A DNA stretch of 64,000 bases from Ignavibacteriota bacterium (lineage in GTDB: Bacteria; Bacteroidota; Ignavibacteria; UBA10030; UBA6906): assembly GCA_963811705.1 (NCBI GenBank), contig CAWESL010000008.1:454673-518672 (forward strand), given 5' to 3'. The notes under the pieces were generated by a model. The model was given only the letters and a program-made list of their open reading frames with translations, was not told the DNA's origin and ran no database searches. This document shows positions 9,554-62,635 of this stretch, piece by piece. The position numbers and the translations under genes were made by a program. The stretch's first letter is position 1. Each line of letters begins with the position of its first letter.

Positions 9554-9927
9554 AAAAACATGGCAGGCTAGGCAACCACAATTCGGGGTCCCAAAACGCT
9601 CAAAAAGCCCCGTCGCTATTGAAGAAAAAATATGGCAGGCTAGGCAACCACTTTTTTCGGTCATATATAATTGTCGACTCACGCTGAAAGGCTTGCAACT
9701 GACGCGCGGGATGATCCTGACAAAGCATCGCTTCCGCCGACGTGCGGCAATTTTCGATGAGACGTTGCAGTTGTCGATGCAAAGGCCAGGAGGTGTTCTG
9801 CGGCCAGTAGGGGAAGCCCTCCCCAAAAACATGGCAGCCTAAGCAACCACTTTTTTCTCTTCGGGAACAGCAGTTTCGCCGCGGCCTGCTTGCACGAAAA
9901 AGAAGGCAGCCTAGGCAACCGCTTTTC
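9554..9927 (+). repeat. REP-like palindrome cluster 1 (4 copies)
   Basis: 16-bp cores at 9562, 9634, 9833, 9905 (GGCAGSCTARGCAACC) with A-rich left and mostly T-rich right flanks. Confidence 0.9.
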
Positions 9928-10000
9928 TGCCCTATGCCATGGGAGAAGGCCTCTGCTGCCAGGGAAAGCGAACTTCGGGGATAGCCGAAAGGATGCAACA

Positions 10001-10574
10001 ATGGCGTTTCATAGTGTCGATGAAATCCTGCGTCAGAAGCATGCAACCTATCATGAGATCTGCGTGCGCCTTGCCGGCGTGACGCCGAACCAGGCGAAAT
10101 TCCCTCCCCCGCAGGGAGGGTGGTCGATTGCCGAAGTTCTCGAGCATGTTAATATTGTTGAGCGTCAGATGCTCACGGTGATCGTCAAGCTCACCAAGAA
10201 GACCGAGGACGAACAACAAACCGCTCGCGGAAGGTGCGATGACGCCGGTGTCACTCCAGAGTGTCATCGATCGAAGCAAAACAGAGAAATACCAAGCAAG
10301 CGAATCCGCGCTCCCGACCGGCACGATCAGCGTTGACGTTTCACTCAAAAATCTTCAGGACGTCGAGGATCAACTCGATGGGCTGCGTGCCAGACTCGAA
10401 TCGATCGACTTGACGCACGCCGTTTTTCCGAACCGGTTCTTCGGGCCGCTCACTCTCGGGGAATGGCTCGCGTTCGTGGAAGTCCATGAGCGCCGGCACC
10501 TGGGTCAGATCGAGTCCATCATCGCGTCGCCCGGTTTCGCCGAACTTGGAAGTCAAACCAGGATAGCAGGATGA
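10001..10574 (+). pseudogene. DinB/YfiT-like four-helix metalloprotein, frameshifted near 10230
   Basis: First frame gives GWSIAEVLEHV; second frame (10239-10574) gives FGPLTLGEWL..HERRHLGQI; real lesion or sequencing indel. Confidence 0.75.
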
Positions 10575-11056
10575 GGCTCTGGTCACTGCATCCACAATAC
10601 CTTGATGCGAAAGGGCTCGTTGCCGCGTGGCGCGAAGCTCTCCTTGCTCAAAAGGTGTTGGAGGGTAAAACCAGAGGATATCGCAATCACCCTCAGCTCA
10701 TCCGGTTCAAGAAGACCAGGCTTCCTGTAGCCGCCATCGGAATGTTCCTCGAGGAAATCGCGCGGGAAGGAGAGCGCCGTGGCTACAATTTCGATCGGTC
10801 CAAGATTCGGTCCGCTGACGGCAGTCGGCTGATGAAAATCGTCGTTTCTGGAGAGCAGGCCGAGTATGAATTCGAGCTTCTCAAGTCGAAACTATGGATG
10901 CGGGATCGGCAAAAGTTAAAGGAACTGCGACGGGTACAGCGCGTTCGGTTAAACGGCATCTTCAGACGCAAGAGCGGAGGAATTGAAGCGTGGGAAAGAG
11001 TCATCCCGCGGATTGCGCTGGCGATGTATTCGTGGAAGTCGGGGATTGATCGCTGA
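10571..11056 (+). CDS. Pyrimidine-dimer DNA glycosylase/endonuclease V family protein
   Basis: MRLWSLHPQYLDAKGLVAAWREALLAQKVL..GYRNHPQL signature. Confidence 0.85.
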   Translation: MRLWSLHPQYLDAKGLVAAWREALLAQKVLEGKTRGYRNHPQLIRFKKTRLPVAAIGMFLEEIAREGERRGYNFDRSKIRSADGSRLMKIVVSGEQAEYEFELLKSKLWMRDRQKLKELRRVQRVRLNGIFRRKSGGIEAWERVIPRIALAMYSWKSGIDR

Positions 11057-11132
11057 CGTTTTCCCGGCCCACCCCGGAAGCGCAGCGCTCCCAATCACTG
11101 GAGTGCGCATGAGAATCAAGCAATCGGGAACC

Positions 11133-11546
11133 ATGAGACAGCTTCCGTGGCGGGTCGCTGCAATCCTCATGGCGACCGCATGGTGCATCGGGTGCCATCA
11201 CGGCGAACGAGGGGTTCTCGTCATCGCGAACGAGACCGGGAAGGATCTGTTCTGCCTTTGGACGATTGCTCCCAGGGATAGTGTCCGGGAGATGCTCGTC
11301 GCGCCAACGGAGGATTCGCTCAAGCTTGGCATCGTCAAGGATGGTGATGAGATTTCTGTCGCGCTCCCGCCGGGATATGCTGCAACGGATCGCATATCCA
11401 TACGGCTATATTCTCTGGATGCGACAGGCTCACCGCGGCGATACCGACTCGAGAGTCTGACGATGACATCGGTCCAACATCTCGAAGCAGTCAACTGGAG
11501 TCCCGTCGTCATCAAAAATGTCGAAGCAAGTATGAACAAACGTTAG
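11133..11546 (+). CDS. Hypothetical lipoprotein
   Basis: Hydrophobic leader ending ...WCIGC; same strand as neighbours; start uncertain. Confidence 0.55.
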   Translation: MRQLPWRVAAILMATAWCIGCHHGERGVLVIANETGKDLFCLWTIAPRDSVREMLVAPTEDSLKLGIVKDGDEISVALPPGYAATDRISIRLYSLDATGSPRRYRLESLTMTSVQHLEAVNWSPVVIKNVEASMNKR

Positions 11547-11610
11547 GTGAATTCTCTCGTTTACCTGCCATTTAGGCCTTAGTCCTGGTCATCGCATCCC
11601 TCCGCGAAGA

Positions 11611-11639
11611 TTGACAATCCTCGTTCTCGTATCTATATT
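11611..11639 (+). promoter_or_regulatory. Sigma70-type promoter
   Basis: TTGACA-17 bp-TATATT, 76 bp upstream of the 11715 start. Confidence 0.6.
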
Positions 11640-11714
11640 TCTGAACATTCGAATCCTTGCCGAAGCACCGTCGCATCGCTCTTCCATTTTCCCTGGAAAT
11701 CAACTACTGCTACT

Positions 11715-12134
11715 ATGGAAACTCCTGTCCTGTCCGACCCGGACGTATTCCCTACCGACCAAGTTCTCTCTGCTCATCTCAGGAAAGCGAGGGCCTCGTT
11801 CGTTTCCCTGTTCGACTACAATCACAAGACTTTCCCCGAATTCGAAGAGCGGTGGAGGTTCTACAACGACGGGAAGAGCTGGTTGATGAATGTGTCGAGG
11901 AAGAAGAAGACCCTCTTCTGGCTTGCTGTAATGGACGGAGCCTTCCGCACGACATTCTACCTGAATCCCCGCGCAGCGGATTGTGTGCCTGCCAGCAAAA
12001 TCCCGAAGGAGCTCAAGGCACGGTTCAAAGAAACCGAGGGAAAGAAGTTCAGGGGAATCACGGTCGTGATCACGAAGAAGAAGGATGTGGAGATTTACAA
12101 AGAACTGCTCACCTTGAAGATGGCGACACTGTAA
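11715..12134 (+). CDS. DUF3788 family protein
   Basis: WRFYNDGKSWL...KKKTLFWL...FRTTFY pattern. Confidence 0.7.
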   Translation: METPVLSDPDVFPTDQVLSAHLRKARASFVSLFDYNHKTFPEFEERWRFYNDGKSWLMNVSRKKKTLFWLAVMDGAFRTTFYLNPRAADCVPASKIPKELKARFKETEGKKFRGITVVITKKKDVEIYKELLTLKMATL

Positions 12135-12166
12135 CTCTCGTCCTCACGCATCGCATGGAGAGCGCC

Positions 12167-12775
12167 ATGGCCACCCGAACAACAAAGAGGGACCTTGCGG
12201 AACTTGCCTCAGGGAATCCCCGGAAAAAATATCGACGGGCGAAGGAGTGCGTTGCTATCGCGCGGACCCACCCGCGGCAACTCTATCCCTACCTCGGCTT
12301 TTTCGTAGACCTGATGAGGAATGACAACAACATTCTGAAGTGGACCGCGATCGATGTTGTGGGATATCTTTCACAAGTGAATACCGGCCGTCAGGTACGT
12401 CAATGTCTGACGTGTCTCTCGGCGTTTCTCAGCGGTGGGAAACTCATCTCGGCGAACCACGCAATCGGTGCGCTGTCCCATGTCGCGCTCGCCCGACCGA
12501 AGTACCAGGACAGGATAACGCAGGAACTTCTGAGTGTCGAGTGCTATTCGTATGAGACGGACGAATGCCGGAATATCGTCCTGGGGAAAGTCATTGACGC
12601 GTTCGGATCGTTGCTCGATCATGTGTATGCAAATGTTCAGGTCCTGGGTTTTGTGTCGCGGCAGCTAAAGAACAGCCGGGCGGGAACGCGAAAGAAAGCG
12701 GAACGATTTCTGAGGAGTGTCGAGAGGGCGACGGGAGGCGGTCGACGGGCCGATAGTGGGCTCAGGTTTTCATGA
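12167..12775 (+). CDS. Hypothetical all-helical (HEAT/ARM-like) protein
   Basis: GGAG RBS; helical pattern (P..LYPY..FF..L, ECRNIVLGKVI). Confidence 0.65.
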   Translation: MATRTTKRDLAELASGNPRKKYRRAKECVAIARTHPRQLYPYLGFFVDLMRNDNNILKWTAIDVVGYLSQVNTGRQVRQCLTCLSAFLSGGKLISANHAIGALSHVALARPKYQDRITQELLSVECYSYETDECRNIVLGKVIDAFGSLLDHVYANVQVLGFVSRQLKNSRAGTRKKAERFLRSVERATGGGRRADSGLRFS

Positions 12776-13254
12776 CACACGCGGAGCCCCGAATGTTCAG
12801 CACCCGAGATGGGACCGGGACAACAACCGTCGAGGCGCAGATCGTTGACATGGTAAACCGCGAGACCAATGCCTGGAATGAGTGCGACGCCGAAGCGCTG
12901 GTTTCGCTCTTCCACCCCGATATGGTTTGGGCCTGGCCAAAGGATGAACATGCCCACGATCCTGTGGACTGGGTTTGCCCGTTGGGGCGCTACGACAAGG
13001 GGCGTTGGAAAGCCGGATGGTGTCGACTCTTCGACACGTATGCGCTCGAGCACAATCGTCGGGACATTGTGAAAATCACCGTGACTTCCGAGGGGGATGG
13101 AGCATTTGCGGTGGTCGATGTTGACACCCTCTGGCGGCATCGGACGACGCGAGAACCATTTCATTGGAAGGGACGGGCGTGCAAGATCTACACGAAGGTC
13201 GGGAGCGGTTGGAAGCTCATAGCGCACACCGGACTTCTCCATTACCCAAGGTGA
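12772..13254 (+). CDS. NTF2-like/SnoaL-like family protein
   Basis: AWNECDAEALVSLFHPD...GWKLIAHTG; ATGA overlap with the upstream gene. Confidence 0.75.
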   Translation: MTHAEPRMFSTRDGTGTTTVEAQIVDMVNRETNAWNECDAEALVSLFHPDMVWAWPKDEHAHDPVDWVCPLGRYDKGRWKAGWCRLFDTYALEHNRRDIVKITVTSEGDGAFAVVDVDTLWRHRTTREPFHWKGRACKIYTKVGSGWKLIAHTGLLHYPR

Positions 13255-13259
13255 CCCCG

Positions 13260-13715
13260 ATGATTCCCGGTGCTCGGTATGTCCATACGAATCTGATTGC
13301 CTTTGACTGGAGGAACCTCGCACGATTTTACAGTGAAGTGTTTGGGTGTACACCCGTCCCCCCCGAGCGGCACTACGCCGGGCCCGCCCTCGAGCGCGGG
13401 ACCGCCGTTACAGGTGCGCGTTTGGACGGGATTCATCTCACATTGCCTGGATACGAAGGCGGTGGCCCGACCCTGGAGATCTATACCTATTCCATCGTGG
13501 CAGACAGTTCTCACCCGGCGGTCAATAGGCCGGGGTACGCTCACATAGCGTTCGCCGTTGATGACGTCGAGCGGGCCCGACAATCGGTGCTTGATGCGGG
13601 CGGGAGAGGCGTGGGGGATGTTGTAACGCTTCGCACGGCAACCGGGTCGGCCGTTACCTGGTGTTACGTCGCTGATCCCGAAGGAAACATCCTCGAGCTT
13701 CAACGATGGGGTTGA
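13260..13715 (+). CDS. VOC/glyoxalase family protein
   Basis: YVHTNL..FY..VFG, GYAHIAFAVDDV, YVADPEGNILEL. Confidence 0.9.
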   Translation: MIPGARYVHTNLIAFDWRNLARFYSEVFGCTPVPPERHYAGPALERGTAVTGARLDGIHLTLPGYEGGGPTLEIYTYSIVADSSHPAVNRPGYAHIAFAVDDVERARQSVLDAGGRGVGDVVTLRTATGSAVTWCYVADPEGNILELQRWG

Positions 13716-13736
13716 CCATGCGAATCGACCGGGACC

Positions 13737-14336
13737 TCATTCACGGAAGACGAGATGATGGGGGAGTTCGGGTGCGTTCACGTTGAGAGCCGCCAGGAAA
13801 GAGGGATCGGTCCGGTCTCGATCGAGCTGGAACAGGAGCGGCTCGGTCGTAAGAAACGATTGCGCGGGCTTTCCAACATAGGACCCGCAACTGCTGTAGA
13901 TCCATTCTTCGGGGTTTTTGACAAGTCCGGCATTGGAGGGATTAAGGTGAATGTACCGGGCAATCTGGAGGCAGCTATCGTCTTCACGCGCGACCTTCAT
14001 GCGGTAGCGTCCTTCGAAGAGGTGGCCGGTCCGAGAGAGCGAATGATTGACATGCTTGGCGTATTCTCCACAGACTGCTTCCATGAAGGCAGAGATGCCA
14101 AACGCCTTCAGTTGTTTGATCAGCATATGGAAATGGTTTGGCATGAGGCAGAAGGCCATGATTGATGCTTCTGCAGGGTTTAGGAAATGGTTCACGAAGT
14201 CGAGGAACTTCGTGTAGAACTTGTCAGACCGATAGATCACTTGTCGGTCGACTCCCCGGTTGTAGACATGGAACGCGCGGCCGGTAAGTCTCACCATTTC
14301 TTGTCGTGTGAATGACTTTCTATGTCCTCGGTTCAT
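13737..14336 (-). mobile_element. REP-associated tyrosine transposase (RAYT, Y1 HUH family)
   Basis: FHVYNRG, CLMPNHFH (HUH), GHLFEGRY, YIHLNP (catalytic Tyr), W.YSS; four REP-like palindromes directly upstream; start uncertain. Confidence 0.88.
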
Positions 14337-14499
14337 GGGATCCACCTTTTCATGAATATGGAGAGTGGCGTGAATTGTAGAGTATGGCGGCGGGAGCATC
14401 TCGTTGTCGAATTCGGCGGGGTCCGGTGAGTTGGCGGAGCGGAAGAGAGAGCCTACATAGTATATACTTTGCAGGGAAGTGTTTTCCGAAGCCAAGTGT

Positions 14500-14693
14500 A
14501 AAAAAAGTGGCAGGCTAGGCAACCTCTTTTCTGAGCGTCGAAAAAGTAGGTTGCCTAAGCAACCATCTTAATCTTGGTGCCGTTGACTCAAAATTGGCTT
14601 ATCTGAGGCGTATTGATCAGGAAAAACATGGCAGCCTAAGCAACCATGTTTTTCGAGACCCAAAAACATGGCAGCTTAGGCAACCATGTTTCT
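14500..14693 (+). repeat. REP-like palindrome cluster 2 (4 copies) upstream of RAYT
   Basis: Cores at 14509, 14549, 14630, 14670; the 14630 copy extends to GAAAAACAT...ATGTTTTTC. Confidence 0.9.
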
Positions 14694-14721
14694 TACACGT
14701 TGGACTCCCGAAGGCGCCCAA

Positions 14722-15216
14722 ATGCCTGCCGAAGATATTCACATCGCAAAACTCCCCGCCATCCGCGTCGCGAGCGCCTATGGGTTCGGCTGCCAGCCGG
14801 AAGAATATGCATGGAACCAACTCGTCCGGTGGGCTCAACCGAAAGGACTTCTCGAGGATCTCCGGGCTCATCCAATTTTTGGCTTCAATAATCCGTACCC
14901 GACTCCGGAGTCGCCGAAGTACGGTTACGTCTTCTGGATTGGCGTGGATGGCACTGTGGAGCCTGAAGGGAACATACGAATCGAAGAGTTTTTCGGCGGC
15001 TCGTATGCTGTTGCCCGATGTGAGGTGCTAGGAGACCCGGGCGGACGCATACCCGCACAATGGAGGTCCCTCACCGAATGGTGCCGGCAGAACAATCATG
15101 CGATGGGAAAACATCCAGCTCTCGAGCAATACCTCTCGCGTCCCGACGACATCGCCCATCTCGTCATGAATCTCTGTTGCCCGATTATCGAGGAGGTGCC
15201 CGCCGTCGCGAGATAA
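14722..15216 (+). CDS. GyrI-like small-molecule-binding (AraC effector) domain protein
   Basis: PEEYAWNQL..WA, FGFNNP, GGSYAV..C, W..L..W, LEQY pattern. Confidence 0.8.
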   Translation: MPAEDIHIAKLPAIRVASAYGFGCQPEEYAWNQLVRWAQPKGLLEDLRAHPIFGFNNPYPTPESPKYGYVFWIGVDGTVEPEGNIRIEEFFGGSYAVARCEVLGDPGGRIPAQWRSLTEWCRQNNHAMGKHPALEQYLSRPDDIAHLVMNLCCPIIEEVPAVAR

Positions 15217-15267
15217 CCCGCGCCTACAGCGCAGAAGAAGCCGCATCGCTCGGGAAGAGCTGACTCC

Positions 15268-15405
15268 ATGAGCTTCGAAGAAGTGATGTTGCAATATATC
15301 GGCGGCCCGACGCTCCTTATCCGCGTGGCAGGACTCAACATCCTGTCCGACCCGACGTTCGATGCTGCCGGCAAAGGTGATCGACTGATCTGGGTAGTCT
15401 CTTAA
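15268..15405 (+). pseudogene. N-terminal remnant of an MBL-fold metallo-hydrolase
   Basis: MSFEEVMLQYIGGPTLLIRVAGLNILSDPTFDAAG then stop after 45 aa, before the HxHxDH motif. Confidence 0.6.
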
Positions 15406-15419
15406 CGCAGGAACTTCCG

Positions 15420-15770
15420 ATGCTCTCCTATTGCGGTTTGGAATGCAGCACCTGCCCCATTCATCTGGCGACACTGGAGACCGAGCCCGTACGACAGTAT
15501 TCGATGCGCGTCGCCATCGCGAATCGGTGCACCGAAGTCTACGGTATGCCGATGAACCCGGAAGACATTACCGATTGCGACGGATGTACACTCCTGTCGG
15601 GACGTTTGTTCTCCGGCTGCGCGAAATGCGAGATCCGGCGCTGCGCTGGCGCCAGGAATCTTCTCACATGCGCGTATTGTCCTGACTACCCTTGTGCAGC
15701 CCTTCGCGCCCGGTTCACATCAGATCCCGGCGCACGGGTACAGTTGGAGAAGATGCGTTCATCGCAGTAA
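15420..15770 (+). CDS. DUF3795 Cys-rich (Fe-S/Zn) protein
   Basis: YCGLECSTCP...CDGC...C..CEIRRCA...TCAYCPDYPC. Confidence 0.8.
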   Translation: MLSYCGLECSTCPIHLATLETEPVRQYSMRVAIANRCTEVYGMPMNPEDITDCDGCTLLSGRLFSGCAKCEIRRCAGARNLLTCAYCPDYPCAALRARFTSDPGARVQLEKMRSSQ

Positions 15771-15943
15771 CACCATCGAACGGGATTCGACAAAACTCCC
15801 CGCCGTCAATTTGTAGAAGGACACCCCGCTCGCGAGCTTCCTCCCGTCGAGCTTCACTTCGTACGTCCCCGCGGGCTGACTTTCGTTTACCAGCGTCGCC
15901 ACCTCCCGCCCGAAATGGGAGGGGGAGATGAGGAGGGCCGGAG

Positions 15944-15978
15944 GAATTAAGAATTAAGAACGAAGAATTCAGAATTCT
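15944..15978. repeat. Heptamer tandem repeat (GAATTAA-like x5)
   Basis: GAATTAA GAATTAA GAACGAA GAATTCA GAATTCT. Confidence 0.7.
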
Positions 15979-16066
15979 TAGTTCAATCAGCTTTAGAGGG
16001 CTCGGGGACTTTGGGACTCTGTGAGAATCCGAGACTATGAGACAAGTGGAGAAAAGCGCGCTCCCG

Positions 16067-18862
16067 TCAACGAACCAAGAGCATCTTCCGAACCGCGGAG
16101 AATGACCCTGCAGTCAAGCGATAGAAGTACACCCCACTTGCCAGATTCGCTCCGGTAAATGTAAACGAGTATCTCCCTGCGGGATAGCGGCCGCTCGCCA
16201 GCGTCGATACCTGACGGCCGAGAACGTCGTAGACAACAAGCCGAACATCACTGGTCACTGACCACTGTCCACTGATCACTGTATTCGGATTGAATGGATT
16301 CGGAAAGTTTTGTTCAAGGTTGAACGATCGCGGCAATGCTGACGTCGCGGGCCGCACCTCCGTAAGGCTGAAGTACCCGGCGCTCGTTGCCGCCGCGATG
16401 CTCATCGGATACGCGACGACATCATGCGACCAGATTTCCACGTACTCACCGTCGTTCAGAGCGCCGTTCTTCAGAAGCCGGAAGTACGCCCCGGTGGGGC
16501 CATCCGGATCGCACGAGCCGGGGCCGTTTCCATCACAGCCTGCACCAATCCCGCCGTGCTTGTTGCTCTGCCAGCCAATGAAATCAGAGTATTGCGCAGC
16601 CAGGCTGTTGACTTCCGGCAATGTTGCGTTGTCGTCAAGCATGTCTGCCTGAAGCTGGACCCTCCCGGGCGCGATCGCGGAAACCGCTTTCACAATCTGT
16701 CCCACGACGTACCCGACGCTGTCGCCAGTGAAGTTCGGAAAGTCGATACCCTTGCTCCCGGGAGGAAGAATGCTCAGCCCGAGAAAGCGATCGGGGAACG
16801 CCTGCGCAAACGAGGTTGCGATTGCAGCAAATCCGTTCACCACCGCAGAATCCGAATAGCCGAGACTCTTCCACCGGGCCGTGTCGGCATCCGTGATGAT
16901 CGTAGGGTAGGCCGGCCTTCCGTCCGGGCAGGTGGATGTGTCGGTGGAAACGGGGCGCGGATATCCCGACGGCAGCCGGAGTTCTTCATCATAGACGCTG
17001 AGCCCCGGGATGTGAACTAGCGTCAGCGATCCGTAAACGCCGGTTTGCTGCAGATGGGCAGACAGGGCGTACGCGGCCGCTCTCCAGAATTCCTGTATGT
17101 TCGGATTCCATGGGAGCAGAATATAGGCGCTGATCCCCCTGCTGACCTCGCCTCCGATCGTCCAAACGTCAAAGAGGGGAGCACTGTTCGCCCCCGCAAG
17201 CGTGAGGAACCCGGCAGGCAATGAATGCAGATAGGTGGTTGAGGATTGATAGGCGGTCTCCAGCTCGAGGGAAAACTTCTTTCCATGCGAGACGGCGATC
17301 TGCACAAGGGAATCGAGGTAGCTCCATTCCCAATTGAACTGCCCCCACGTTGTAATGTTCGGGAGGATCTTCGCGATCGGAACGAAAATCGCGTGTCCGG
17401 CGACGTCATTTTGGTAGGCCATCGAAGTCGTCAATCCTGAAGCATAGGCCTGCGCCGCTGGTCGCTCATTGCTGTTTTCATCCATGACGTAAATACCGCG
17501 AGGTCGAGGGATCCCCGATGTGTCGGCAAGAGGAGTGCGTTGAATGGACGCCTGCATGATGACTTGCGTATATGGGTTCCAGGTATCCATCGTGAAGAAG
17601 AATGTCGAGGTTCCCTTCGACACGTCCCCCGTCGTCAGGCGCGAAATGAAATACGGCCCGTAATCACCGCCGGGGTCCGACATGCGATCAGGGCCGGCAA
17701 GACTGTCACACGGAGTGGGATTTTGCGAGCTGACGGCGCGATGGATAAAGAAGCAATACCCGGCGTCTCGAGTCGGATTGAAAATCGTTTGTGGTTCGCT
17801 CCAGGGCCCCCAAGGACGCTCCGCCGTGCGCATGTAAATGCCTCGCGGGTTTTTGGGGGTATCGTTCAGGCAATTGTAGAGCATGACCCATCGCTGGACA
17901 TACGGATTCCAGTCAACCCCGAGCTCGCCCATTCCGTCAGCCACCTGCATCGTGCCGCCGGGACCTGGCAGCGAATCGTGGAAGAGCGGCACCGCGCCAG
18001 CCTCACTCGTCGTGAAGACGGGAGAACCGTCCGGATCGACAGCGTGCAAGTATTCAATTGCGGTCGAGTCGGCCATGGAACCCGCAGGTTTTCGTGCAAG
18101 GAAGACCGCACTCTTTCGATAGAGAGAATCTCCCTGGGTTCCCCAGAAATACAAATACCCATCCTGGCCGCGGCCGATTGCGGTGTTGATGAACTTCGCT
18201 CCCGGCTCGCGTGAAAAACTGTAGAGATAGTGGAAGGTGTTCGCATCGTCGTCAGACACGGCCACGACGGTTCTCGCCGGGTAACCGAGCGGCTCAGGAG
18301 GGGATGCGGTGTCTGTCGGATTGTCGGTCCCAAAGATCACAAACATTCTTCCACCATCGCTGATCCCGGAGACTGGACTCTCGTTCGTCCGAAGATGAAT
18401 CGCCGGTTGACCGAGGGCATTTAGGACGACCGGGTTTTTGTAGGCTCCAATAGAGTCGGTGATGAAGTCCAGGCGGAAGCATGGTCCCGCACTGGAATCG
18501 GACACGTACCCGATCGCATCGTTGTCAAAGTACTGGCGAGGCAAATCCGTTTGGCTGTTCGGATGGCCGTTGAATTTGTCCGTCGGGTGCGTATCCCCGA
18601 AGAGGAAAAATAACTTTCCATGATGTTCAAACGAGTACCCATGGTCAGCGCGGACAAGTCCGTACCGTGTTTGCGTCATACTCATCGTCGGCTGATGGAA
18701 TTCGAGATCGGTGTCGCCGGTGACCTGGCAGACCTTTTGGATTGAGCCCGGCACGAAGAGGACGGATCCGGAGTGTCCCGGCAGGCTGGAGTTGTCGCCG
18801 GACGAAGCTGAAGAAGGCACCACCACGAAGAGCATGGCAAGCGGAAGAAGAAGAGATTTCAT
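16067..18862 (-). CDS. T9SS-secreted protein: DUF4185-like domain + putative glycoside-hydrolase barrel + C-terminal sorting domain
   Basis: Signal peptide; LFGDT, PWGPWSEP, GGDYGPY; second domain GQFNWEWSYLDSLV..GKK; LEQNFPNPFNP...SGVYFYRL CTD. Confidence 0.75.
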   Translation of the reverse strand: MKSLLLPLAMLFVVVPSSASSGDNSSLPGHSGSVLFVPGSIQKVCQVTGDTDLEFHQPTMSMTQTRYGLVRADHGYSFEHHGKLFFLFGDTHPTDKFNGHPNSQTDLPRQYFDNDAIGYVSDSSAGPCFRLDFITDSIGAYKNPVVLNALGQPAIHLRTNESPVSGISDGGRMFVIFGTDNPTDTASPPEPLGYPARTVVAVSDDDANTFHYLYSFSREPGAKFINTAIGRGQDGYLYFWGTQGDSLYRKSAVFLARKPAGSMADSTAIEYLHAVDPDGSPVFTTSEAGAVPLFHDSLPGPGGTMQVADGMGELGVDWNPYVQRWVMLYNCLNDTPKNPRGIYMRTAERPWGPWSEPQTIFNPTRDAGYCFFIHRAVSSQNPTPCDSLAGPDRMSDPGGDYGPYFISRLTTGDVSKGTSTFFFTMDTWNPYTQVIMQASIQRTPLADTSGIPRPRGIYVMDENSNERPAAQAYASGLTTSMAYQNDVAGHAIFVPIAKILPNITTWGQFNWEWSYLDSLVQIAVSHGKKFSLELETAYQSSTTYLHSLPAGFLTLAGANSAPLFDVWTIGGEVSRGISAYILLPWNPNIQEFWRAAAYALSAHLQQTGVYGSLTLVHIPGLSVYDEELRLPSGYPRPVSTDTSTCPDGRPAYPTIITDADTARWKSLGYSDSAVVNGFAAIATSFAQAFPDRFLGLSILPPGSKGIDFPNFTGDSVGYVVGQIVKAVSAIAPGRVQLQADMLDDNATLPEVNSLAAQYSDFIGWQSNKHGGIGAGCDGNGPGSCDPDGPTGAYFRLLKNGALNDGEYVEIWSHDVVAYPMSIAAATSAGYFSLTEVRPATSALPRSFNLEQNFPNPFNPNTVISGQWSVTSDVRLVVYDVLGRQVSTLASGRYPAGRYSFTFTGANLASGVYFYRLTAGSFSAVRKMLLVR

Positions 18863-19429
18863 CGGGCGCTCCGGTTCTATCTATCAAATGCTCATCCCCC
18901 CCGGCGTGGTTAACGATTTTGGGAAGGAGAGAGTTCAATTCTCCGCCCGGCATACGGTGCCTGAGCTCTGATAAAATCGTAACTGCAACCGCAAATCAGC
19001 AATAGACTTAGCGTAACAGGATACATTCCTCAGGTCCGAAACCAGGCTGCCAAAACCGCCATGTCGTTCCGACCGAAACATGGCGTCGCCCTGGTCGAAC
19101 TTTTGCCCCGCGGCGGGAGTTATGCAATACCGAAGGACAGGGTCCACGAACCACAAGGACCTCGAGGTTGTCGACGCATTCTCTGAATCTTACGACCTGT
19201 AAAGAATGGCCTTGTTCCATGCCCGCGTTGGTAAGGAACTCAGCGTTCTCGTCAAGCGTCCTGGATACGTGGAGAAGATCTTCTCCAGGGGGAGTATTGT
19301 GGGGGTAACGTACGTCTTGGCTGATCCACAGGTGGCCGGTCAATTTCTTGCCTCCTCCCTCCGATCGAGTTTGATCGTCAGCGAAGGATTTGACTGTCAG
19401 TTCCGGAGACTCAAGAAAGGTGGACTCGA

Positions 19430-19906
19430 ATGTTTAGAGTGCATGAGCGTGTAACCTCGGCTTCGGCGAGAGAGGGTCTTGCCCCGCTGCTCATCCGATT
19501 AATTGTCGGCTGCGTCTTTCTCTCAGAAGGAATTCAGAAATTCCTGTTTGCTGAAGCGCTTGGGGTGGGACGATTCAGGACGATCGGCATTCCAGCACCC
19601 GAAGTCATGGCCCCATTTGTCGGGCTCGTCGAAACTGTATGCGGGGCTCTCGTCGTCATTGGGCTCTTCACGCAACTCGCTTCGATCCCGCTGCTCATCA
19701 ATATCAGTGTTGCCATCGGAACCACGAAGATTCCGATGCTGCTGCACAAAGGCTTTTGGGCCATGGCACACGAAGCGAGAGTTGACTTTTCCATGTTCCT
19801 CGGTTCGATTTTCCTCATTATCGTCGGAGGTGGACTGTGGTCTCTCGATTCCTTCATCGCGCGCCGGCGTAGTTCGCGGGTCGAAAACGGCAAATCCACT
19901 GGGTAG
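19430..19906 (+). CDS. DoxX family membrane protein
   Basis: LLIRLIVG.VF.SEGIQK, E..CG...IGL.T, GGGLWSLD; start uncertain. Confidence 0.88.
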   Translation: MFRVHERVTSASAREGLAPLLIRLIVGCVFLSEGIQKFLFAEALGVGRFRTIGIPAPEVMAPFVGLVETVCGALVVIGLFTQLASIPLLINISVAIGTTKIPMLLHKGFWAMAHEARVDFSMFLGSIFLIIVGGGLWSLDSFIARRRSSRVENGKSTG

Positions 19907-20149
19907 CCTTCCAGTTCCGTCTGCTATGACACGTGACCTTCGTTCGGATTTCTTTCTTCCTCTCCTGATCCCAAGAATCAGTATCCCCGGAACATTTTCT
20001 CTCGACTGTCGGTTTGAAAGCAATCCCCCCTCTTTCCACTATCAGGCGGGGCGACAGCCAAAAGTCGGAAACGCTGCAGGAGTGATCGGGAAACCGGGCG
20101 AATCCGGAGACACCGTAGCATACCGAACACAAGACTTGATGAGAGAATC

Positions 20150-20458
20150 ATGAAAGCTGTTGCGACAATTCTCCGTTGCGCAATCTGCATCGCTGATCCT
20201 GCAGGTTTCGGACAGGAAATCCCTCCCACGCCTCGTCACAAAGGTCGTGAGCATCGCGCGCCACATGCAAACAATGCGCTTCATCGTTCGCGCGGCAAGT
20301 TGGACGGCAGCACCGGTATGCCCTCGGGGAAACATGGCGCAGGGAAGAACTCGACGGGTGGCGGAAGCGGCTCGACGGACAGAATCACCGGCATGCCTTC
20401 CGGCAAGATTCTTCGGCATCCTCCTCGCATCAGGCATATTGGTGGAGGAAAAATGTGA
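20150..20458 (+). CDS. Small basic Gly/His-rich hypothetical protein
   Basis: GAGAGA upstream, signal-like N-terminus, TGMPSGK repeated twice. Confidence 0.45.
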   Translation: MKAVATILRCAICIADPAGFGQEIPPTPRHKGREHRAPHANNALHRSRGKLDGSTGMPSGKHGAGKNSTGGGSGSTDRITGMPSGKILRHPPRIRHIGGGKM

Positions 20459-20466
20459 TCGGCTTC

Positions 20467-21837
20467 TCAATAGAAGGTCACACTTACCGTCAGGCCGGCT
20501 GAAATGAACGCAGATGAAGAACTCGGGTCTTTGACCAGGACAGTCCTCTGGTTCAGGACATCGACGGGCAACGTCCATTCGACGACAGGAGCAATCGACC
20601 AATTGCCGACTGCCAACTCCACAGGAAGCGCGAGGCCGTACGACATGATGCTAAACACATCGTATGGCGACCCCGATACTCTCACGATTTCTTTCTTCTT
20701 CGACCGGAGGATTCTCTTCTGGAGAAGCCGCTCGCTCTGTTGCCCCCAGGTTGCTTCCGCGGTCGGACTGACCTCCAGCGTTCCGCCGAACACATTATCG
20801 CTGACAACGATGCCTGCGGAGACGCCGAGATCGATGCTGATTTCTGATCCGCCCCCGGCCGTGAAGTCGTCGAGAAGCGTCCCTTCCACATTCACAGGGT
20901 CGGTCTGGAGCCCGAGCGCGCCGCTGACTTCCTGATTTGTAACGGCCTGGGGGCGGGGGCTTGAGGCAGAATACCAAAAGTGCGTATACGCAATGGAACC
21001 GGAGAACACTGTTGAGGCGGAAAATTCGTAACCGGCACCCAGGCTGGTGACATCAGGGGTGGACAGCGACGTCGTTACCCACCCGAGAGAACCGGCAAGA
21101 TAGAGTCCGCTTGAATGGTGGTACGTTGCGGTCGGGCCGATCGACCCAGCGGAGATTCCATTGTCTCTGCCGCGATAGCTCGTGTGGCTCTCATATCCGG
21201 CATCGACTTCGAAACGCGTTGCGTGATCTTTCGTGTAGCTTGCGTAGTCCTCTTTCAGGACCTGGAGAGTGTCGTCGAGAGCTTCGGCGTTTTCCGTTGC
21301 GGCGTCGTCAATCGAAGATTCCCATGCTTCCACAATTGTCGCCATCGAGTCGCCGTAGAAGCCGGAGATGCTGTCCGCTGCTGCCCGATATGCCTCCTCG
21401 GCACTATCATAGTCTGCGGCAGTCTTGCACGTGGGGCACGTTGCGCTGCCGGCATGGAACGTTTGAAGATCCTTTTCGAATTGGGCCAACAGTCCGGTGA
21501 TCATTACCCGTGATGGAGTCCCGATCAGATTCATGGATTGTTCCTGCCGGCGGTTGAAGAGGCGCGCATTGTTTCTCCGGGAAACATCAAGAGAATCGTG
21601 GGCTACAGAGAGGGTGGAGTCGAGTCGTTTCCGAAGGGCCCATGAGCAGGAGAGGAAGTATTCATGGCCGTGGGTCACCAGGGTCTCGACGTACTTCTTC
21701 TGATCGCGGAGAAGCGAATCCGTCGCCAATCGCAGGGTGTTGCGGAATGCTTTGTCCAGGGTGTCAGGATTCTGAGCGAAGGCAGGCGCGGGGCCGAGCA
21801 GGGAAAACGCGAGAACAGCAAGGGCAAGGAGACGCAT
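20467..21837 (-). CDS. Hypothetical outer-membrane protein (helical N-domain, C-terminal beta-barrel)
   Basis: Signal peptide AFA; amphipathic strands; terminal AGLTVSVTFY. Confidence 0.7.
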   Translation of the reverse strand: MRLLALAVLAFSLLGPAPAFAQNPDTLDKAFRNTLRLATDSLLRDQKKYVETLVTHGHEYFLSCSWALRKRLDSTLSVAHDSLDVSRRNNARLFNRRQEQSMNLIGTPSRVMITGLLAQFEKDLQTFHAGSATCPTCKTAADYDSAEEAYRAAADSISGFYGDSMATIVEAWESSIDDAATENAEALDDTLQVLKEDYASYTKDHATRFEVDAGYESHTSYRGRDNGISAGSIGPTATYHHSSGLYLAGSLGWVTTSLSTPDVTSLGAGYEFSASTVFSGSIAYTHFWYSASSPRPQAVTNQEVSGALGLQTDPVNVEGTLLDDFTAGGGSEISIDLGVSAGIVVSDNVFGGTLEVSPTAEATWGQQSERLLQKRILRSKKKEIVRVSGSPYDVFSIMSYGLALPVELAVGNWSIAPVVEWTLPVDVLNQRTVLVKDPSSSSAFISAGLTVSVTFY

Positions 21838-22051
21838 AGGAGACCTTCCGCAGCGCGTGAATGGATGCCGTCTCTCGACGAGATTGTAGTTATAATCCTG
21901 GGCATGCGGATTTAGTTCCGCGGGGAGAAATATTCTGAGGTTCTTAAACCCCGATTCTTCCAGATGATTTCACCGGAAGCTTGATGTCGCTGTGATTGCG
22001 CGAACACCTGGCGGACAAAGGGTTCCGGGAACGAGCGAAGAGGGAGGTGCC

Positions 22052-22951
22052 ATGTTCTCTGCCGCAAAAAATTGGAAGGCGCATCGGATGCTCCGGTTGT
22101 TTGCGGACCGGTGCACAGCCCACGTCAGAAATGAACGGCAACGCACAGTGGTCCGTTCCGCCGTCCTGAAGATTGCAGAGGAGAGACAATCGGGCGCCGC
22201 CCCATTGTGTCTGGATCCGCGCTTCCGGCTTCGCGTAGAGTTGGAGGATATCGAGGAACATCGCCTTGAGTACATCCTCGATCAATTCAACGGTCTTTCC
22301 TATTCCGAGGAGCTTCAATTCCCAGGGCCACTCGAACGCAGGCTCATGGCCTGCCATCAGAATTCAGGTCTGCGATTTCATTGGAAGCGGCCCTTCCGAC
22401 GGGCATCAGTCTCCATACGACTGATCGATACGACCGTCGGATTCGGAGTGTTCGCAGACCGGGACCTCGAAGAAGGAGAAGTGGTCGGCGAGTATGCTGG
22501 GTTTGTATCGATCAGCGAGTCGGTTGCCGACAGGACGTACTGTTACGAGTATCCCGCCTTGCACTACGCCGGAGAAGAGACTTCCCTTGTTGTCGATGCT
22601 GCCCGTACCGGCAACGAGACCCGATTTATCAATCACGCCCTGCCGGAAGTCGTTACGCATAGTTTCGAATTCTTCAATGGTCACTGGCGTGTACCGTTCA
22701 CTGTCAATTGCGGCATCGAGAAGGACGAACAGCTCTTCATCGATTATGGGTCGGGCTATTGGGAAGGGCAATCCCGCCAACCGCTGGCGCTCTCCTCACG
22801 GGAAATTCCGCCTGATGAAGCGCCGGGTGAGGCGAACGAGTCCGGGGCAATTCCCGACGCGCAGGCGTCTGCGTGCGAAGAAGTCCTCGCGCAACCTCAT
22901 CACGAGGGGATGGGGGGACCGCAAAGCTATCAAAAAAACATGGTTGCCTAG
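22052..22951 (+). CDS. SET domain protein (putative protein-lysine methyltransferase)
   Basis: GGAGG RBS; GFGVFA....GEYAG, DA...GNETRFINH, QLFIDYG..YW; the stop codon lies inside a REP-like copy. Confidence 0.85.
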   Translation: MFSAAKNWKAHRMLRLFADRCTAHVRNERQRTVVRSAVLKIAEERQSGAAPLCLDPRFRLRVELEDIEEHRLEYILDQFNGLSYSEELQFPGPLERRLMACHQNSGLRFHWKRPFRRASVSIRLIDTTVGFGVFADRDLEEGEVVGEYAGFVSISESVADRTYCYEYPALHYAGEETSLVVDAARTGNETRFINHALPEVVTHSFEFFNGHWRVPFTVNCGIEKDEQLFIDYGSGYWEGQSRQPLALSSREIPPDEAPGEANESGAIPDAQASACEEVLAQPHHEGMGGPQSYQKNMVA

Positions 22952-23083
22952 GCAACCGTCTTAATGTTCGCAATTCCTCACTTTTGAGGCCGCAAACAAA
23001 GGACGAAAAACATGGCAGGTTAGGCAACCATCTTAATGTTGCCAAGCATCAAAAAACATGGCAGCCTCAGCAACCGCTTTTTC
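22933..23083 (+). repeat. REP-like palindrome cluster 3 (3 copies)
   Basis: Cores at 22942 (perfect GGTTGCCTAGGCAACC), 23014, 23060. Confidence 0.9.
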
Positions 23084-23124
23084 TTCATTTCTTCATTTCC
23101 CAATCACCTGTTCAAGGAGGTATC

Positions 23125-23487
23125 ATGAAGATTCTCGGCAAGCGTTTCTGGACCTGGATGAGCGTCTGGGCGATCTCCTTCTTTGTCAGGGGCGAAATGG
23201 CGGGAGCCCGTCCGAATCCGTCGAGTCCTCAGGAGGCGACGTCGACGACAAACCAAAACAAAACCGCCAACAAGGTCACGCACAAGATTCCCACGCCCGA
23301 ATTCACCCGGCACAAAGAGGGGTCGGGAAAAGCGGGATTGGACATTAAAAAGGGGAGTGAGCATGGCAGGGTCAAGGAAGGACCGTTGGGTTACAAGTTA
23401 CAGAATCCCAAGAAAGAGAGTTCGAAAACGATCAAAATGAACACCGTGAAAACGTCCAAGTGGTCAACGCATTCGAAGCCAAAGTGA
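23125..23487 (+). CDS. Small Lys/Thr/Ser-rich exported protein with Trp-rich leader
   Basis: AAGGAGG RBS; MKILGKRFWTWMSVW leader shared with the 23523 and 31319 ORFs. Confidence 0.75.
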   Translation: MKILGKRFWTWMSVWAISFFVRGEMAGARPNPSSPQEATSTTNQNKTANKVTHKIPTPEFTRHKEGSGKAGLDIKKGSEHGRVKEGPLGYKLQNPKKESSKTIKMNTVKTSKWSTHSKPK

Positions 23488-23522
23488 ATTCGGGCATGGC
23501 ATTCTCGATGGTGAGAGAGAGC

Positions 23523-23816: not shown

Positions 23817-23882
23817 CCGTAGCCTGGACATTGACGGCGCCTTCCTTCCTCACCGCCTCCGACACCCTGCGTCCGGCCTCCC

Positions 23883-35385: not shown

Positions 35386-35699
35386 GAAAAAGTTGGTTGC
35401 TTAGGCAACCATCTTAATGTTCGAAAACGGGCTCAAATAGGGCCGTCTTCATTGGAGAAAAAACATGGCAGCCTAAGCAACCGTTTTAATCTAACCTCTT
35501 CACCGGCTGCAGTAGTGACTCCAACCACGGAACCGAGCGTTAATGAAGCCGCGAGGGCCGCGAGAAAACGTCGATAAGATGAGCCAATCGTGAAAAAGTT
35601 GGTTGCTTAGGCAACCATCTTAATGTTCGAAAACGGGCTCAAATAGGGCCGTCTTCATTGGAGAAAAAACATGGCAGCCTAAGCAACCGTTTTAATCTA
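35289..35699. repeat. Tandem duplication of a ~205-bp unit, each containing a REP-like pair (cluster 4)
   Basis: 35289-35493 vs 35496-35699 differ by 2 substitutions and 1 indel; cores at 35395, 35467, 35601, 35673. Confidence 0.92.
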
Positions 35700-51333: not shown

Positions 51334-51337
51334 GTTC

Positions 51338-59956: not shown

Positions 59957-60018
59957 CGGGTTGGCTTTTATACCGTGGACACTCGTACATTAGAGCGTTC
60001 GAACAGACGGGTTGCTCC

Positions 60019-61701
60019 ATGCCTCATCGCACAATATCGCTGCGCCTCATTGTGGCCACGATGGTTCTTGCTCTCGCCGGACTCATCGTGCTGCAATGGC
60101 ATTTATTGCGCCAGGCGATGGAATTGAAAGAGCAGGCGTTCCGGCGGAATGCGGTTGCGGCGCTTTGGACGGCGGTACAAAAACTGGATGCGGGGGAAGC
60201 CTATCGCAGCGTCATCAGCGCGACGATGGTCATGGATAGCACCCTCCCGCCGGGGCAAGCGAAAGTGTCTCGTTCCGGGATCGCGGCGACGGTGCGTGCG
60301 GGGGCTCTGTCTCCCGACTCCCTTCCCCTGCAAATGCACGGGGGGAAACTCACGTACATTGTCAAGTCGCCGCAATGGGTGCGCCTTCAGCAATTTGATT
60401 TCGGCGCGAACCGGGATACCGTCGTTGTCGACACGTTCAAGAATCCCGGGAGATATGAGGTCAACATCAACCGGATCGGCGAACAGGGCGACGAAATGTA
60501 TTACCGGTATACCGCCGACTCATCGCATTTCTACCTTCAGACCGGAACTCAGAAACGGCAACAAACGGTTTCGGTCAGTCTGAACACGGAAAGTCGACGG
60601 GCGATCGTGAACAAAGCGATGGACCGCCTGTTCATGATCGAGCAGAAACCGATTGAAGAGCGGATCCGTCCTGCGCTCCTCGACTCGGTGCTCCGTTCGA
60701 CATTCCATGACGCGGGCATCACCATGGGTTTCGAGCGCGGTATTGCGACGGAAGGGGATACGGCGCTGAGTCTTGTTGCACCCGCAGGGGCGGGTGAACG
60801 ACTCCGGCACTCCGCTTTTCGCGCGGCATTCCTGCCGGGGGACGCCCTCTCGCCGCGCAACAGTCTCGTGGTGGATTTTCCTGACCAGCAGGCATTCCTC
60901 CTGAGCCAGATGGGCCCGCTCTTCGGCGTCACGGCGATCCTGATGGTGATCATCGTGAGCGGCTTCGCGTATGCGGTGCGCACCATCGTCAATCAGCGGC
61001 GCCTTGCGGCGCTCATGACCGATTTTGTCAATACCATGACCCACGAATTCAAGACGCCGATTTCCACTGTCGCCCTGGCCGTCGAAGCGATTGAGCGTCC
61101 CGAAGTGGCGTCGCACAAGGACAAAGTCCAGCAATTCAACAGAGTGATCCGCGACGAGACGGCGCGGTTGCGGCGGCAGGTCGAGAAGATACTCGAGATG
61201 GCGACGCTCGAACGCGGCGACTACGAATTGAACTTCGAGCCGATCGACATCCATGCCCTCCTCCGTGAGGTGTCTGCGGGAGTCGCGCTCCAGGTGAGCC
61301 ATCGCGGGGGGAGCCTGCGCCTCGATCTCGAGGCGGGCGACCCGATGGTGGTCGCAGACAAGGTGCATCTCACGAACATCGTGAACAACCTCCTTGACAA
61401 CGCCAACAAATACTCTCCGGGCAAGCCCGTGATCGTTCTGACGACACGGACCAGCGGAGATGCGGTTGTGATCGCGGTGAGCGACGAGGGAATCGGGATC
61501 GCGCCGGAACATGTGGGGATGGTGTTCGAAAAGTATTTCCGGGTGCCAACCGGAAACCGACATGATGTGAAAGGGTTCGGGCTGGGGTTGAGCTACGTGA
61601 AGCTGATGACGGAAGCGATGCGGGGAAGCGTTGCGATCCGGAGCGTCGTCGGGAGCGGCACCACGGTGGAAGTGACTCTCCCGGCCGGGAGACGATCGTG
61701 A
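60019..61701 (+). CDS. Sensor histidine kinase (HisKA)
   Basis: Two TMs, THEFKTP, NLLDNANKY, DEGIGI, GFGLGL. Confidence 0.93.
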   Translation: MPHRTISLRLIVATMVLALAGLIVLQWHLLRQAMELKEQAFRRNAVAALWTAVQKLDAGEAYRSVISATMVMDSTLPPGQAKVSRSGIAATVRAGALSPDSLPLQMHGGKLTYIVKSPQWVRLQQFDFGANRDTVVVDTFKNPGRYEVNINRIGEQGDEMYYRYTADSSHFYLQTGTQKRQQTVSVSLNTESRRAIVNKAMDRLFMIEQKPIEERIRPALLDSVLRSTFHDAGITMGFERGIATEGDTALSLVAPAGAGERLRHSAFRAAFLPGDALSPRNSLVVDFPDQQAFLLSQMGPLFGVTAILMVIIVSGFAYAVRTIVNQRRLAALMTDFVNTMTHEFKTPISTVALAVEAIERPEVASHKDKVQQFNRVIRDETARLRRQVEKILEMATLERGDYELNFEPIDIHALLREVSAGVALQVSHRGGSLRLDLEAGDPMVVADKVHLTNIVNNLLDNANKYSPGKPVIVLTTRTSGDAVVIAVSDEGIGIAPEHVGMVFEKYFRVPTGNRHDVKGFGLGLSYVKLMTEAMRGSVAIRSVVGSGTTVEVTLPAGRRS

Positions 61702-62444
61702 AACAGGATCGCAAACGGAAGCCGGAGAATCGGAGCCGCATTCTGCTTCTCGAGGATGATCCCAATCTCGGATTCATCCTGCAGGAGCACCTGCAGCTGG
61801 AAGGATTCGCGGTGACTGCCTGCGCGAACGGCGTGGAGGGGTTGGACGCGTATCAGAAGGCGAAGCACACGCTCTGTCTTGTGGATGTCATGATGCCGGC
61901 CATGGACGGGTTCGCGTTCGCGCGGACGATCCGCGGGAGCGACGATTCCACGCCGATTATTTTCCTTACGGCGAAATCGCTGAAGGAGGACAAGGTCGAG
62001 GGGTTTCGGATCGGCTGCGACGATTACGTAACGAAACCTTTCAGCATGGAAGAGCTGATGTTGCGGATCCGTGCAGTGTTGCGGCGGGCAGGGCCATCGA
62101 CTCCGGAGGATGCGGGATCGACGCCGGAGATCTTTGCAGTGGGGAAATTTATGTTTGATCAATCGAAGCGGACGTTGCGGGCGGGGGAGAAGGAACGGCG
62201 GTTGACGAGCCGAGAAGCGGAACTTCTGCGATTACTCTGTCTCCACAAGAATCGCGTGCTTGAGCGAGATGTGGCGCTGCGGTCCATCTGGGGAAGCGAC
62301 TCGTTCTTCAATGGCAGGAGTATGGACGTCTTTATCTCGCGCCTGAGGCGGTATCTTGCCTCTGACCGATCGATTGAAATTCTGAATGTGCACGGGAAGG
62401 GATTCAAGCTTGTTGAGAGCAAGACAGCAGACAGTAGACAGTGA
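61698..62444 (+). CDS. OmpR family response regulator
   Basis: LEDD, DVMMP.MDG, FLTAK, DDYVTKPF, RSMDVFISRLR, HGKGF. Confidence 0.94.
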   Translation: MKQDRKRKPENRSRILLLEDDPNLGFILQEHLQLEGFAVTACANGVEGLDAYQKAKHTLCLVDVMMPAMDGFAFARTIRGSDDSTPIIFLTAKSLKEDKVEGFRIGCDDYVTKPFSMEELMLRIRAVLRRAGPSTPEDAGSTPEIFAVGKFMFDQSKRTLRAGEKERRLTSREAELLRLLCLHKNRVLERDVALRSIWGSDSFFNGRSMDVFISRLRRYLASDRSIEILNVHGKGFKLVESKTADSRQ

Positions 62445-62450
62445 ACAGGA

Positions 62451-62635
62451 CAAAAACATGGCAGCTTAGGCAACCATATTTTGCTGACCTCAAAAACAAG
62501 GCAGCCTAGGCAACCACTTTTCCCTGGTTAAAAGCTCTCTTTTAGGCCTGAAGATAAAGAACAGAAAATATGGCAGCCTAGGCAACCATATTTTGCTGAC
62601 CTCCAAAACATGGCAGCTTAGGCAACCTCATTTTC
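62451..62635 (+). repeat. REP-like palindrome cluster 5 (4 copies)
   Basis: Cores at 62460, 62500, 62572, 62612. Confidence 0.9.

Follow-up and report, generated by a model that had tools for sequence, protein, structure and literature searches.

A probable REP/RAYT system with head-to-tail palindromes at fixed spacings in an Ignavibacteriota genome

Five clusters of a short palindromic repeat were found in a 64,000-nt stretch of DNA (the window; contig C8, positions 454673-518672) of an Ignavibacteriota metagenome-assembled genome, here called G000. The palindromes are probably the repetitive extragenic palindromes (REPs) of a REP/RAYT system, that is, a system of REPs and a REP-associated tyrosine transposase (RAYT). 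The evidence lies in the anatomy of the repeats, their adjacency to a RAYT-type gene, the co-occurrence of repeats and gene across congeners, the intact catalytic motifs of the gene and one presence/absence polymorphism.

The conserved unit is a 32-nt hairpin, longer than its 16-bp core, of the form AAAAACAT-GG(CA/CT/TT)GCYTARGCAACC-ATGTTTTT. The stem is AAAAACATGG..GC / GC..CCATGTTTTT, the loop is YTAR, and the unit has AAAACAT / ATGTTTT flanks on both sides. Folded as single-stranded DNA, it gives a 13-bp stem with a 4-nt loop. The as-written strand reaches -9.4 kcal/mol (z -4.7), with CA opposite AA forming a 2x2 internal loop, and the complementary strand -10.6 kcal/mol (z -4.9). Genome-wide, 108 strict cores were counted, with CA (70), CT (13) or TT (25) in the left arm. 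A fixed 2-nt stem mismatch, CA or CT opposite AA, is found in 83 of them and gives the unit a strand identity, since its two strands differ; the other 25 are perfect palindromes. REPs are defined as short (~20-40 nt) imperfect palindromes able to form a stem-loop, and the 32-nt unit has these properties. The loop variants CTAG, TTAG and CTAA were similarly frequent. The double variant TTAA was absent from the 108 cores, where independent variation of both positions would give ~10 by a rough estimate. A sigma-54 promoter reading (TGGCA..GCAA) was rejected by eye, as the GG-to-GC spacing misfits the -24/-12 rule. No known RNA family reached its gathering score anywhere in the window.

Searching the window for GGTTGCCTAGGCAACC with up to 3 mismatches gave 17 matches, all reported on the + strand. 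The chance expectation was 0.12, and 17 matches were reached in none of 100 shuffles. Reading the sequence of the clusters added two variants, GGCAGGTTAGGCAACC at 23014 and GGCAGCCTCAGCAACC at 23060, for a total of 19 units in five clusters. Beyond these, nhmmer reported a single weak match (E=5.9) near window position 35913. An initial annotation of the same DNA had counted 19 canonical cores plus two variants; the five clusters stand, and the two variants are part of the 19. It had also listed 15 units with a GGCAG left arm, and 15 of the 19 do have one. The other four are GGTTGC palindromes, the core of which is orientation-free when taken alone. The start-to-start steps were exactly as first described: 72 bp six times, 40 bp four times, and 46 and 81 bp once each, with one duplicated unit among them.

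The enzyme gene, RAYT-1, lies beside the second of these clusters. A whole-genome search with Pfam Y1_Tnp returned three genes, all on contig C8, including the window open reading frame (ORF) 13737-14522 on the - strand. Homology of this long ORF to its ortholog in the congener G003 starts at residue 63; the gene therefore probably starts at Met64 and spans 13737..14333 (- strand), coding for a Y1 HUH transposase-like protein of ~198 aa. RAYT-1 scored 41.7 bits against Pfam Y1_Tnp (cut-off 23). Its HUH (NHFH) and Tyr (ARYIHLNP) catalytic motifs are intact, as in the enzyme of a REPtron, and are invariant across the three paralogs of the genome. A profile built from the three paralogs matched ISDra2 TnpA (2xm3, E 0.006) and E. 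coli TnpA-REP (4er8, E 0.01); the profile was required, as a search of the PDB with the single RAYT-1 sequence gave a chance match only. Cluster B, a four-unit element with steps [40, 81, 40] (14501..14693, + strand; cores 14509, 14549, 14630 and 14670), lies ~175 bp upstream of where RAYT-1 starts; its motif and the gene are on opposite strands. A REPtron is a RAYT flanked by cognate REPs, and this holds on one side of the gene in G000 and on both sides in G003. The HUH-processing architecture suggested by the initial annotation was thus right in kind, in that a RAYT-type Y1 gene adjoins cluster B and co-occurs with the repeats; that it cleaves them is what we infer.

Repeats and gene were followed through relatives by counting the motif GGCWGCYTARGCAACC exactly in 41 genomes. 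It occurred 75 times in G000 and 43, 4 and 0 times in the same-genus genomes G003, G002 and G001, respectively, and was absent from the 37 other genomes of the family or order. Among the congeners, a close RAYT-1 ortholog was present only in G003 (57% identity), and the best matches in G001 and G002 were 26-28% identical (E 7.7e-5). The G003 ortholog is surrounded by cores in inverted orientation, one 3' and two 5', which is the classical RAYT arrangement. G003 arrays have periods of 35, 46, 51-52, 66-69, 88, 98 and 129 bp, and some start with an inverted copy, which makes both the 40/72 scheme and the strict rule of head-to-tail order specific to G000. The G002 site that is syntenic to RAYT-1 contains one unit only and lacks a RAYT gene, which would be consistent with decay of the family without the enzyme.

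The presence/absence polymorphism concerns the canonical four-unit element [40, 72, 40] at 62452..62635 (+ strand; cores 62460, 62500, 62572 and 62612). It is absent from the orthologous G002 spacer, which measures 47 bp compared with 203 bp in G000, and this difference points to mobility. As regards a target-site duplication, the divergence between the G002 site and the filled site of G000 is too great to fix the exact element ends. Immediately before the element, at 62415-62450, is a heptamer-like tract (GACAGCA/GACAGTA/GACAGTG), a longer version of which is kept at the orthologous G002 site. Words related to (GGACAGT)n were among the commonest 14-mers of the genome and were present on many contigs.

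Further comparisons covered more distant genomes and metagenomes. Out of 80 RAYT-homolog loci from other phyla, 38 were examined, and 24 of the 38 shared a word of at least 13 nt between the two gene flanks; these words were mostly short palindromes. Four soil-metagenome runs from one study contained parts of the stretch as short low-depth contigs, whose joints or loose ends at units matched other copies of the family. The segments C2:629000-650300 and C8:5400-5830 were 84-96% identical to contig C2 of G003, mostly ~90% or more, whereas the other regions compared between the two genomes were 65-77% identical. This suggests a recent exchange of the segment between the two lineages that bear REPs and RAYT.

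The 108 strict cores form 31 clusters, a copy number at the low end for REPs. All 31 clusters were intergenic and none lay inside a gene (own ORF-based gene calls), as is expected of REPs. The 80 within-cluster steps were discrete: 40 bp (36 steps), 39 (1), 72 (23), 73 (5), 74 (3), 46/47 (3), 81 (1), 90/91 (6), 134 (1) and 199 (1). The initial annotation had proposed a genome-wide histogram of inter-core distances, and this showed separate classes instead of a continuum. Steps of exactly 40 or 72 bp made up 59 of the 80, a regular spacing with defined linkers of the kind known from bacterial interspersed mosaic elements (BIMEs). Within the 39-40 class, 36 of 37 steps were exactly 40 bp. A 40-bp step was found at 16 separate loci and a 72-74-bp step at 24. 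The commonest composite architecture was [40, 72 or 73, 40], at nine loci and inside two longer arrays, followed by [40, 91, 40] at three loci; [40, 81, 40] occurred only at the locus beside the RAYT gene. Plain 72/73 doublets were present at eight loci.

The two main steps differ in their linkers. The linker of the 72-74-bp step is 56-58 nt long, and ~16 of the 31 (counted by eye) share one module (consensus ..TTCATTTTGAGGCCGTAAACAAAGGACGAAAAATAT), which means that much of the 72-bp quantum is simple descent; the remaining linkers form several smaller subtypes that differ in sequence but are equally long. At this step the left unit is often a perfect palindrome (TT, 14/31) and the right unit nearly always carries CA (25/31). 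The linker of the 40-bp step consists of ATGTTTT, ~10 variable nt and AAAACAT. Between loci, 4.38 of its central 11 positions agree, which is near-random, while neutral divergence of these centres should alter many lengths by indels, given the indel-to-substitution ratio. The 40-bp quantum really is a length kept without sequence. The earlier claim of length conservation without sequence therefore holds for the 40-bp step and fails for about half of the 72-74-bp linkers, which are one homologous module. Linkers of the same locus were more alike, with 6.42 of 11 central positions in agreement, a value matched by none of 5000 permutations. Tandem duplication of a unit plus its flank was rejected as the source of the 40-bp step: the match of the linkers to their own flanks (3.67 of 10 positions; 2.97 of 9) was no better than to the flanks of other loci (3.36 and 2.66, respectively). 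Nor do the arrays resemble CRISPR arrays (24-48 bp direct repeats with unique spacers of similar size), since the variable centre is only ~10 nt and the 31 loci have arrays of 2-7 units; no search for cas genes was made. Another group of frequent 14-mers, on C7 and C17, was rejected as a REP family and belongs to a local repeated gene region at contig ends. A conserved motif set (e.g. GCGGCCGTTAGGC) is present 22 times at C7:738-21885 and 8 times at C17:1422-13082, with gaps of mostly ~450-1500 bp, a few reaching ~4 kb; this is a locally amplified region.

The other window clusters show the same building blocks, all on the + strand. The first consists of two 72-bp doublets: one with two hairpin units at 9554..9657 (cores 9562 and 9634, both of GGCAGG type), and one at 9825..9928 (cores 9833 and 9905), 199 bp past the first, with the linker subtype 'cagtttcgccgcggcctgcttgcac'. 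A three-unit element [72, 46] occupies 22934..23083 (cores 22942, 23014 and 23060). There, the loop of the first core provides the TAG stop codon (22949-22951) of a SET-domain ORF (21992-22951); stop codons supplied by REPs are noted in a REP survey (PMC3733652). Two copies of the 72-bp doublet at 35387..35696 (cores 35395/35467 and 35601/35673) are the products of one 206-bp tandem duplication.

Orientation was uniform within clusters: none of the 31 was mixed, and all asymmetric units of a cluster were co-oriented. In the window, the gene directions flanking the five clusters were ++, -+, ++, -- and +- (own crude gene calls), so the + orientation of the motif there is independent of gene direction. 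The initial annotation had reported this co-orientation across 53 kb; it stands for the window and fails as a rule of the family, since 13 clusters of the genome are +, 16 are - and 2 are undefined. The flanking genes of the 29 oriented clusters (++ 10, -- 9, +- 6, -+ 4) rule out an orientation linked to transcription. The dnaA gene (C8:205836-206321) coincides with the minimum of the cumulative GC skew and with a switch in gene-strand bias, which places oriC ~250 kb upstream of the window and the window itself in the right replichore. The left replichore has 11 - and 4 + clusters and the right one 5 - and 9 +. The strand bias that had been proposed relative to GC skew or replichore is therefore a trend (20 concordant and 9 discordant clusters, Fisher p=0.066), and the + run of the window is the commoner state of the right replichore. 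In the commoner state, the as-written strand (GGCAGC...GCAACC) is the G-rich strand and, as parental DNA, the lagging-strand template. Such a direction would be expected of an HUH enzyme at the fork, but is again a trend short of significance.

All 31 clusters lie on the contigs C2, C8 and C15. Synteny with G003 supports the order C2(+)-C8(+)-C15(+), as the G003 DNA past the right end of C8 runs into the start of C15, and that past the left end into the end of C2. In G002, C1-like DNA follows the right end of C8, and C1 (60 kb) may sit between C8 and C15. Under the order C2-C8-C15, every cluster is located -701 to +438 kb from dnaA. This domain of 1.14 Mb makes up 22% of the genome and 20.5% of its intergenic bases; the chance of such confinement under uniform spread, computed after the pattern had been seen, is ~4e-22. 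A chimeric bin was rejected as the cause. Pooled tetranucleotide usage of the domain and the rest correlates with r=0.997, compared with 0.999 between halves of the rest, and 50-kb chunks of both overlap on principal components 1-3. A single dnaA-class match was found above E 1e-10. In G003, copies were present on 6 of 10 contigs. No report of an origin-proximal restriction of REPs was found in the REP literature cited here. At the right end of C8 (C8:534600-534900; locus L104, 5490-5790) is a ~300-bp sequence with dozens of copies in G002 and G003, which probably broke the assembly.

The two RAYT-1 paralogs, both outside the window, have a different kind of repeat beside them. The second RAYT-like gene (C8:115600-116700; locus L002) codes for 195 aa, with HUH and Tyr motifs intact. 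Either flank carries, in the same orientation, ~14 tandem copies of a non-palindromic 13-nt unit (GTCTGGCAYTTGT / TGTGTGTCTGGCT), which belongs to a tandem family of the type TGTGTCTGGCAYT. The third (C8:323280-324420; locus L003; 203 aa) is flanked by ~14.6 and ~5.7 copies of the tandem 11-nt unit GACCTGWCCCC and a short (AATCTAA)n tract. Among 84 RAYT-homolog loci analysed with Tandem Repeats Finder, long short-period arrays on both flanks were detected only at these two. Arrays of at least 2 copies of the 13-nt family (word TGTGTCTGGC) occur at ~24 loci, only on C2, C8, C15 and C10, and C4, C6 and C22 have single words only. The 13-nt family largely shares the origin-side restriction of the palindromes. 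At C2:605953, one of its arrays directly abuts a 73-bp REP doublet.

In the REP/RAYT model that we propose, units would be assembled head-to-tail into composite, BIME-like elements, namely a 40-bp doublet and a 72-bp doublet with a conserved linker module, most often combined as the four-unit [40, 72, 40]. The adjacent single-copy RAYT-1 would recognise the hairpin of one strand in single-stranded DNA, mainly on the lagging-strand template. By cutting and rejoining beside the hairpin, it would copy composite elements into other intergenic sites. The 40 and 72 quanta would be the geometry of the copied unit, persisting partly by common descent and partly since copies with altered spacing would stop being copied.

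Several points weigh against this model. RAYT-1 scored 62.8 bits against NCBIfam REP_Tyr_transpos, under the curated cut-off of 80, and no unit is present 3' of the gene in G000, where the 5' side alone has them. None of the 31 G000 clusters contains an inverted doublet, so the published long-hairpin model of REPINs (REP doublets forming hairpins) does not apply. The unit flanks have neither a GTAG nor a CGTC tag at the stem; the tag defines two published super-families, not REPs as a whole. The likeness of spacers within a locus is not predicted by a simple copy-and-diverge model and requires local events, either gene conversion or duplication. The bias by replichore falls short of significance, and the confinement of the family to 22% of the genome is left unexplained. 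Cleavage and mobilisation by the RAYT, the strand that it selects and the reason for the constrained length are deduced here from sequence.

A bolder extension, which we regard as unlikely, is that the RAYT-type enzymes of this lineage both make and spread head-to-tail arrays by cutting and rejoining at fixed, ruler-like distances from a site that they recognise, with a spread that is tied to the fork and confined to a domain. If true, the ruler would explain the 40-bp step with its fixed length and free centre, and would give a shared account for the two paralogs flanked by 11- to 13-nt non-palindromic tandem arrays. A fork-tied spread would explain the limit of -701 to +438 kb and the presence of the second family on the same contigs plus C10; transposition would then be limited to a chromosome domain.

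Three other explanations were weighed against the REP/RAYT model. The arrays might be kept for a role at the RNA level, as bidirectional intrinsic terminators or 3'-end stabilisers, given that each unit, on either strand, reads as a GC-rich stem preceded by an A-tract and followed by a T-tract, that five units in 9000-24000 were flagged as terminator-like, and that only 4 of the 29 oriented clusters lie between divergent genes. REPs in general lie mostly between unidirectional and convergent genes, according to the survey (PMC3733652). We consider this distinctly improbable as the main role: arrays of 4-7 units exceed what termination needs, they are oriented without regard to the flanking genes, the hairpin is weakened by the conserved mismatch in its stem, units are missing from most of the genome, and the terminator scan was barely above shuffles (21 versus 14.1 +/- 3.8). 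It would also leave the link to the RAYT gene unexplained. A terminator effect may be a secondary, co-opted role.

Even less probable, in our view, is that the units are double-strand sites for a dimeric DNA-binding protein, phased into arrays that organise the origin-proximal chromosome in the manner of parS/Noc-type systems. The 16-bp dyad of the core, perfect in 25 of 108 cases, the position of every cluster around dnaA and a spacing that stays fixed while the spacer sequence varies would fit such a role. However, the dyad is broken in 83 of the 108 units, the two positions and the arm being the same each time, which fits strand-specific hairpin recognition better; the palindrome extends into the A/T flanks to give the 13-bp stem, and the family follows the presence of RAYT-1 across congeners. 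Phasing is not borne out either: the "about 4 and 7 helical turns" of the initial annotation are in fact 3.8 and 6.9 at 10.5 bp per turn, which are not integers. The non-palindromic second family is similarly restricted to the origin side (the same three contigs plus C10), so the domain effect is not tied to the palindrome motif, and a candidate binding protein was not identified. Least probable of all, to a degree that we would nearly dismiss it, is ordinary local tandem duplication of a palindrome by slippage or unequal exchange, with no transposase involved. Such events do occur, as seen in the 206-bp duplication at 35395-35688, and the locus-specific array periods of G003 and the alike spacers within loci agree with them. 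Yet 16 separate loci share the 40-bp step and 24 the 72-74-bp step, the 40-bp linkers are no closer to their own flanks than to those of other loci, contrary to the unit-plus-flank prediction, and slippage cannot seed 31 unlinked intergenic sites.

With an intact enzyme, an E. coli-like mismatch, a head-to-tail layout and two sharp spacings, the Ignavibacteriota system is a natural test of what the enzyme reads: the hairpin, the mismatch, the flanks or the spacing. [quoted passage not shown] Most worth following are this origin-centred confinement and the paralogous RAYT genes with their non-palindromic tandem arrays.

To our knowledge, work on REP/RAYT systems has been almost confined to Proteobacteria, where the accepted replicative unit is an inverted doublet. 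In literature searches pairing Ignavibacteria with RAYT or REP, the taxon name was absent among the matches listed. The E. coli REP/BIME system with TnpA-REP (RAYT group 2; REPtron) resembles that of G000 in its short extragenic imperfect palindromes with a 2-nt mismatch in mid-stem, in its composite elements with linkers of defined length, and in a single-copy Y1 HUH gene adjoining a REP cluster. The conserved 2-nt mismatch of the E. coli REP stem is needed for cleavage by TnpA-REP, and a single strand is processed, REP and not iREP (PMC8266576). The systems differ in that BIMEs are regularly spaced REPs of alternating orientation (PMC2817692), whereas no G000 cluster alternates, in the lack of a GTAG tag in G000, in the units being on one side of the gene only, and in the host, an Ignavibacteriota instead of a proteobacterium.

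In Pseudomonas fluorescens SBW25, next-neighbour distances of REPs peak sharply at 71 and 110 bp; tandem REP arrays have steps of 112 and 72 bp and switch from forward to reverse orientation between the two sides of the origin, and every RAYT has REP clusters next to it (PMC3116915). This REPIN/RAYT system, including its tandem GI-GIII arrays, shares with G000 the sharp spacings, the tandem arrays of fixed step, the clusters beside the RAYT and, as a trend in G000, an array orientation that changes at the origin. Its replicative unit is an inverted doublet forming one long hairpin, in contrast to the head-to-tail doublets and four-unit elements of G000, and its copies lie all round the chromosome, whereas those of G000 are confined to 22% of the genome around dnaA. 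The survey of GTAG- and CGTC-tagged REPs names head-to-tail (HT) REP dimers as a class, though a rare one, and also recognises clusters "reiterated in tandem" (PMC3733652). The tandem orientation of the HT dimers is that of G000, where it is the sole arrangement and occurs without the tag. We therefore file the system as REP/RAYT and as neither REPIN nor classical BIME, because the inverted or alternating orientation that defines these was looked for and not found. Quantised spacing is already known for REP systems; what is unusual here is the purely head-to-tail form, with one spacing that is constrained in length.

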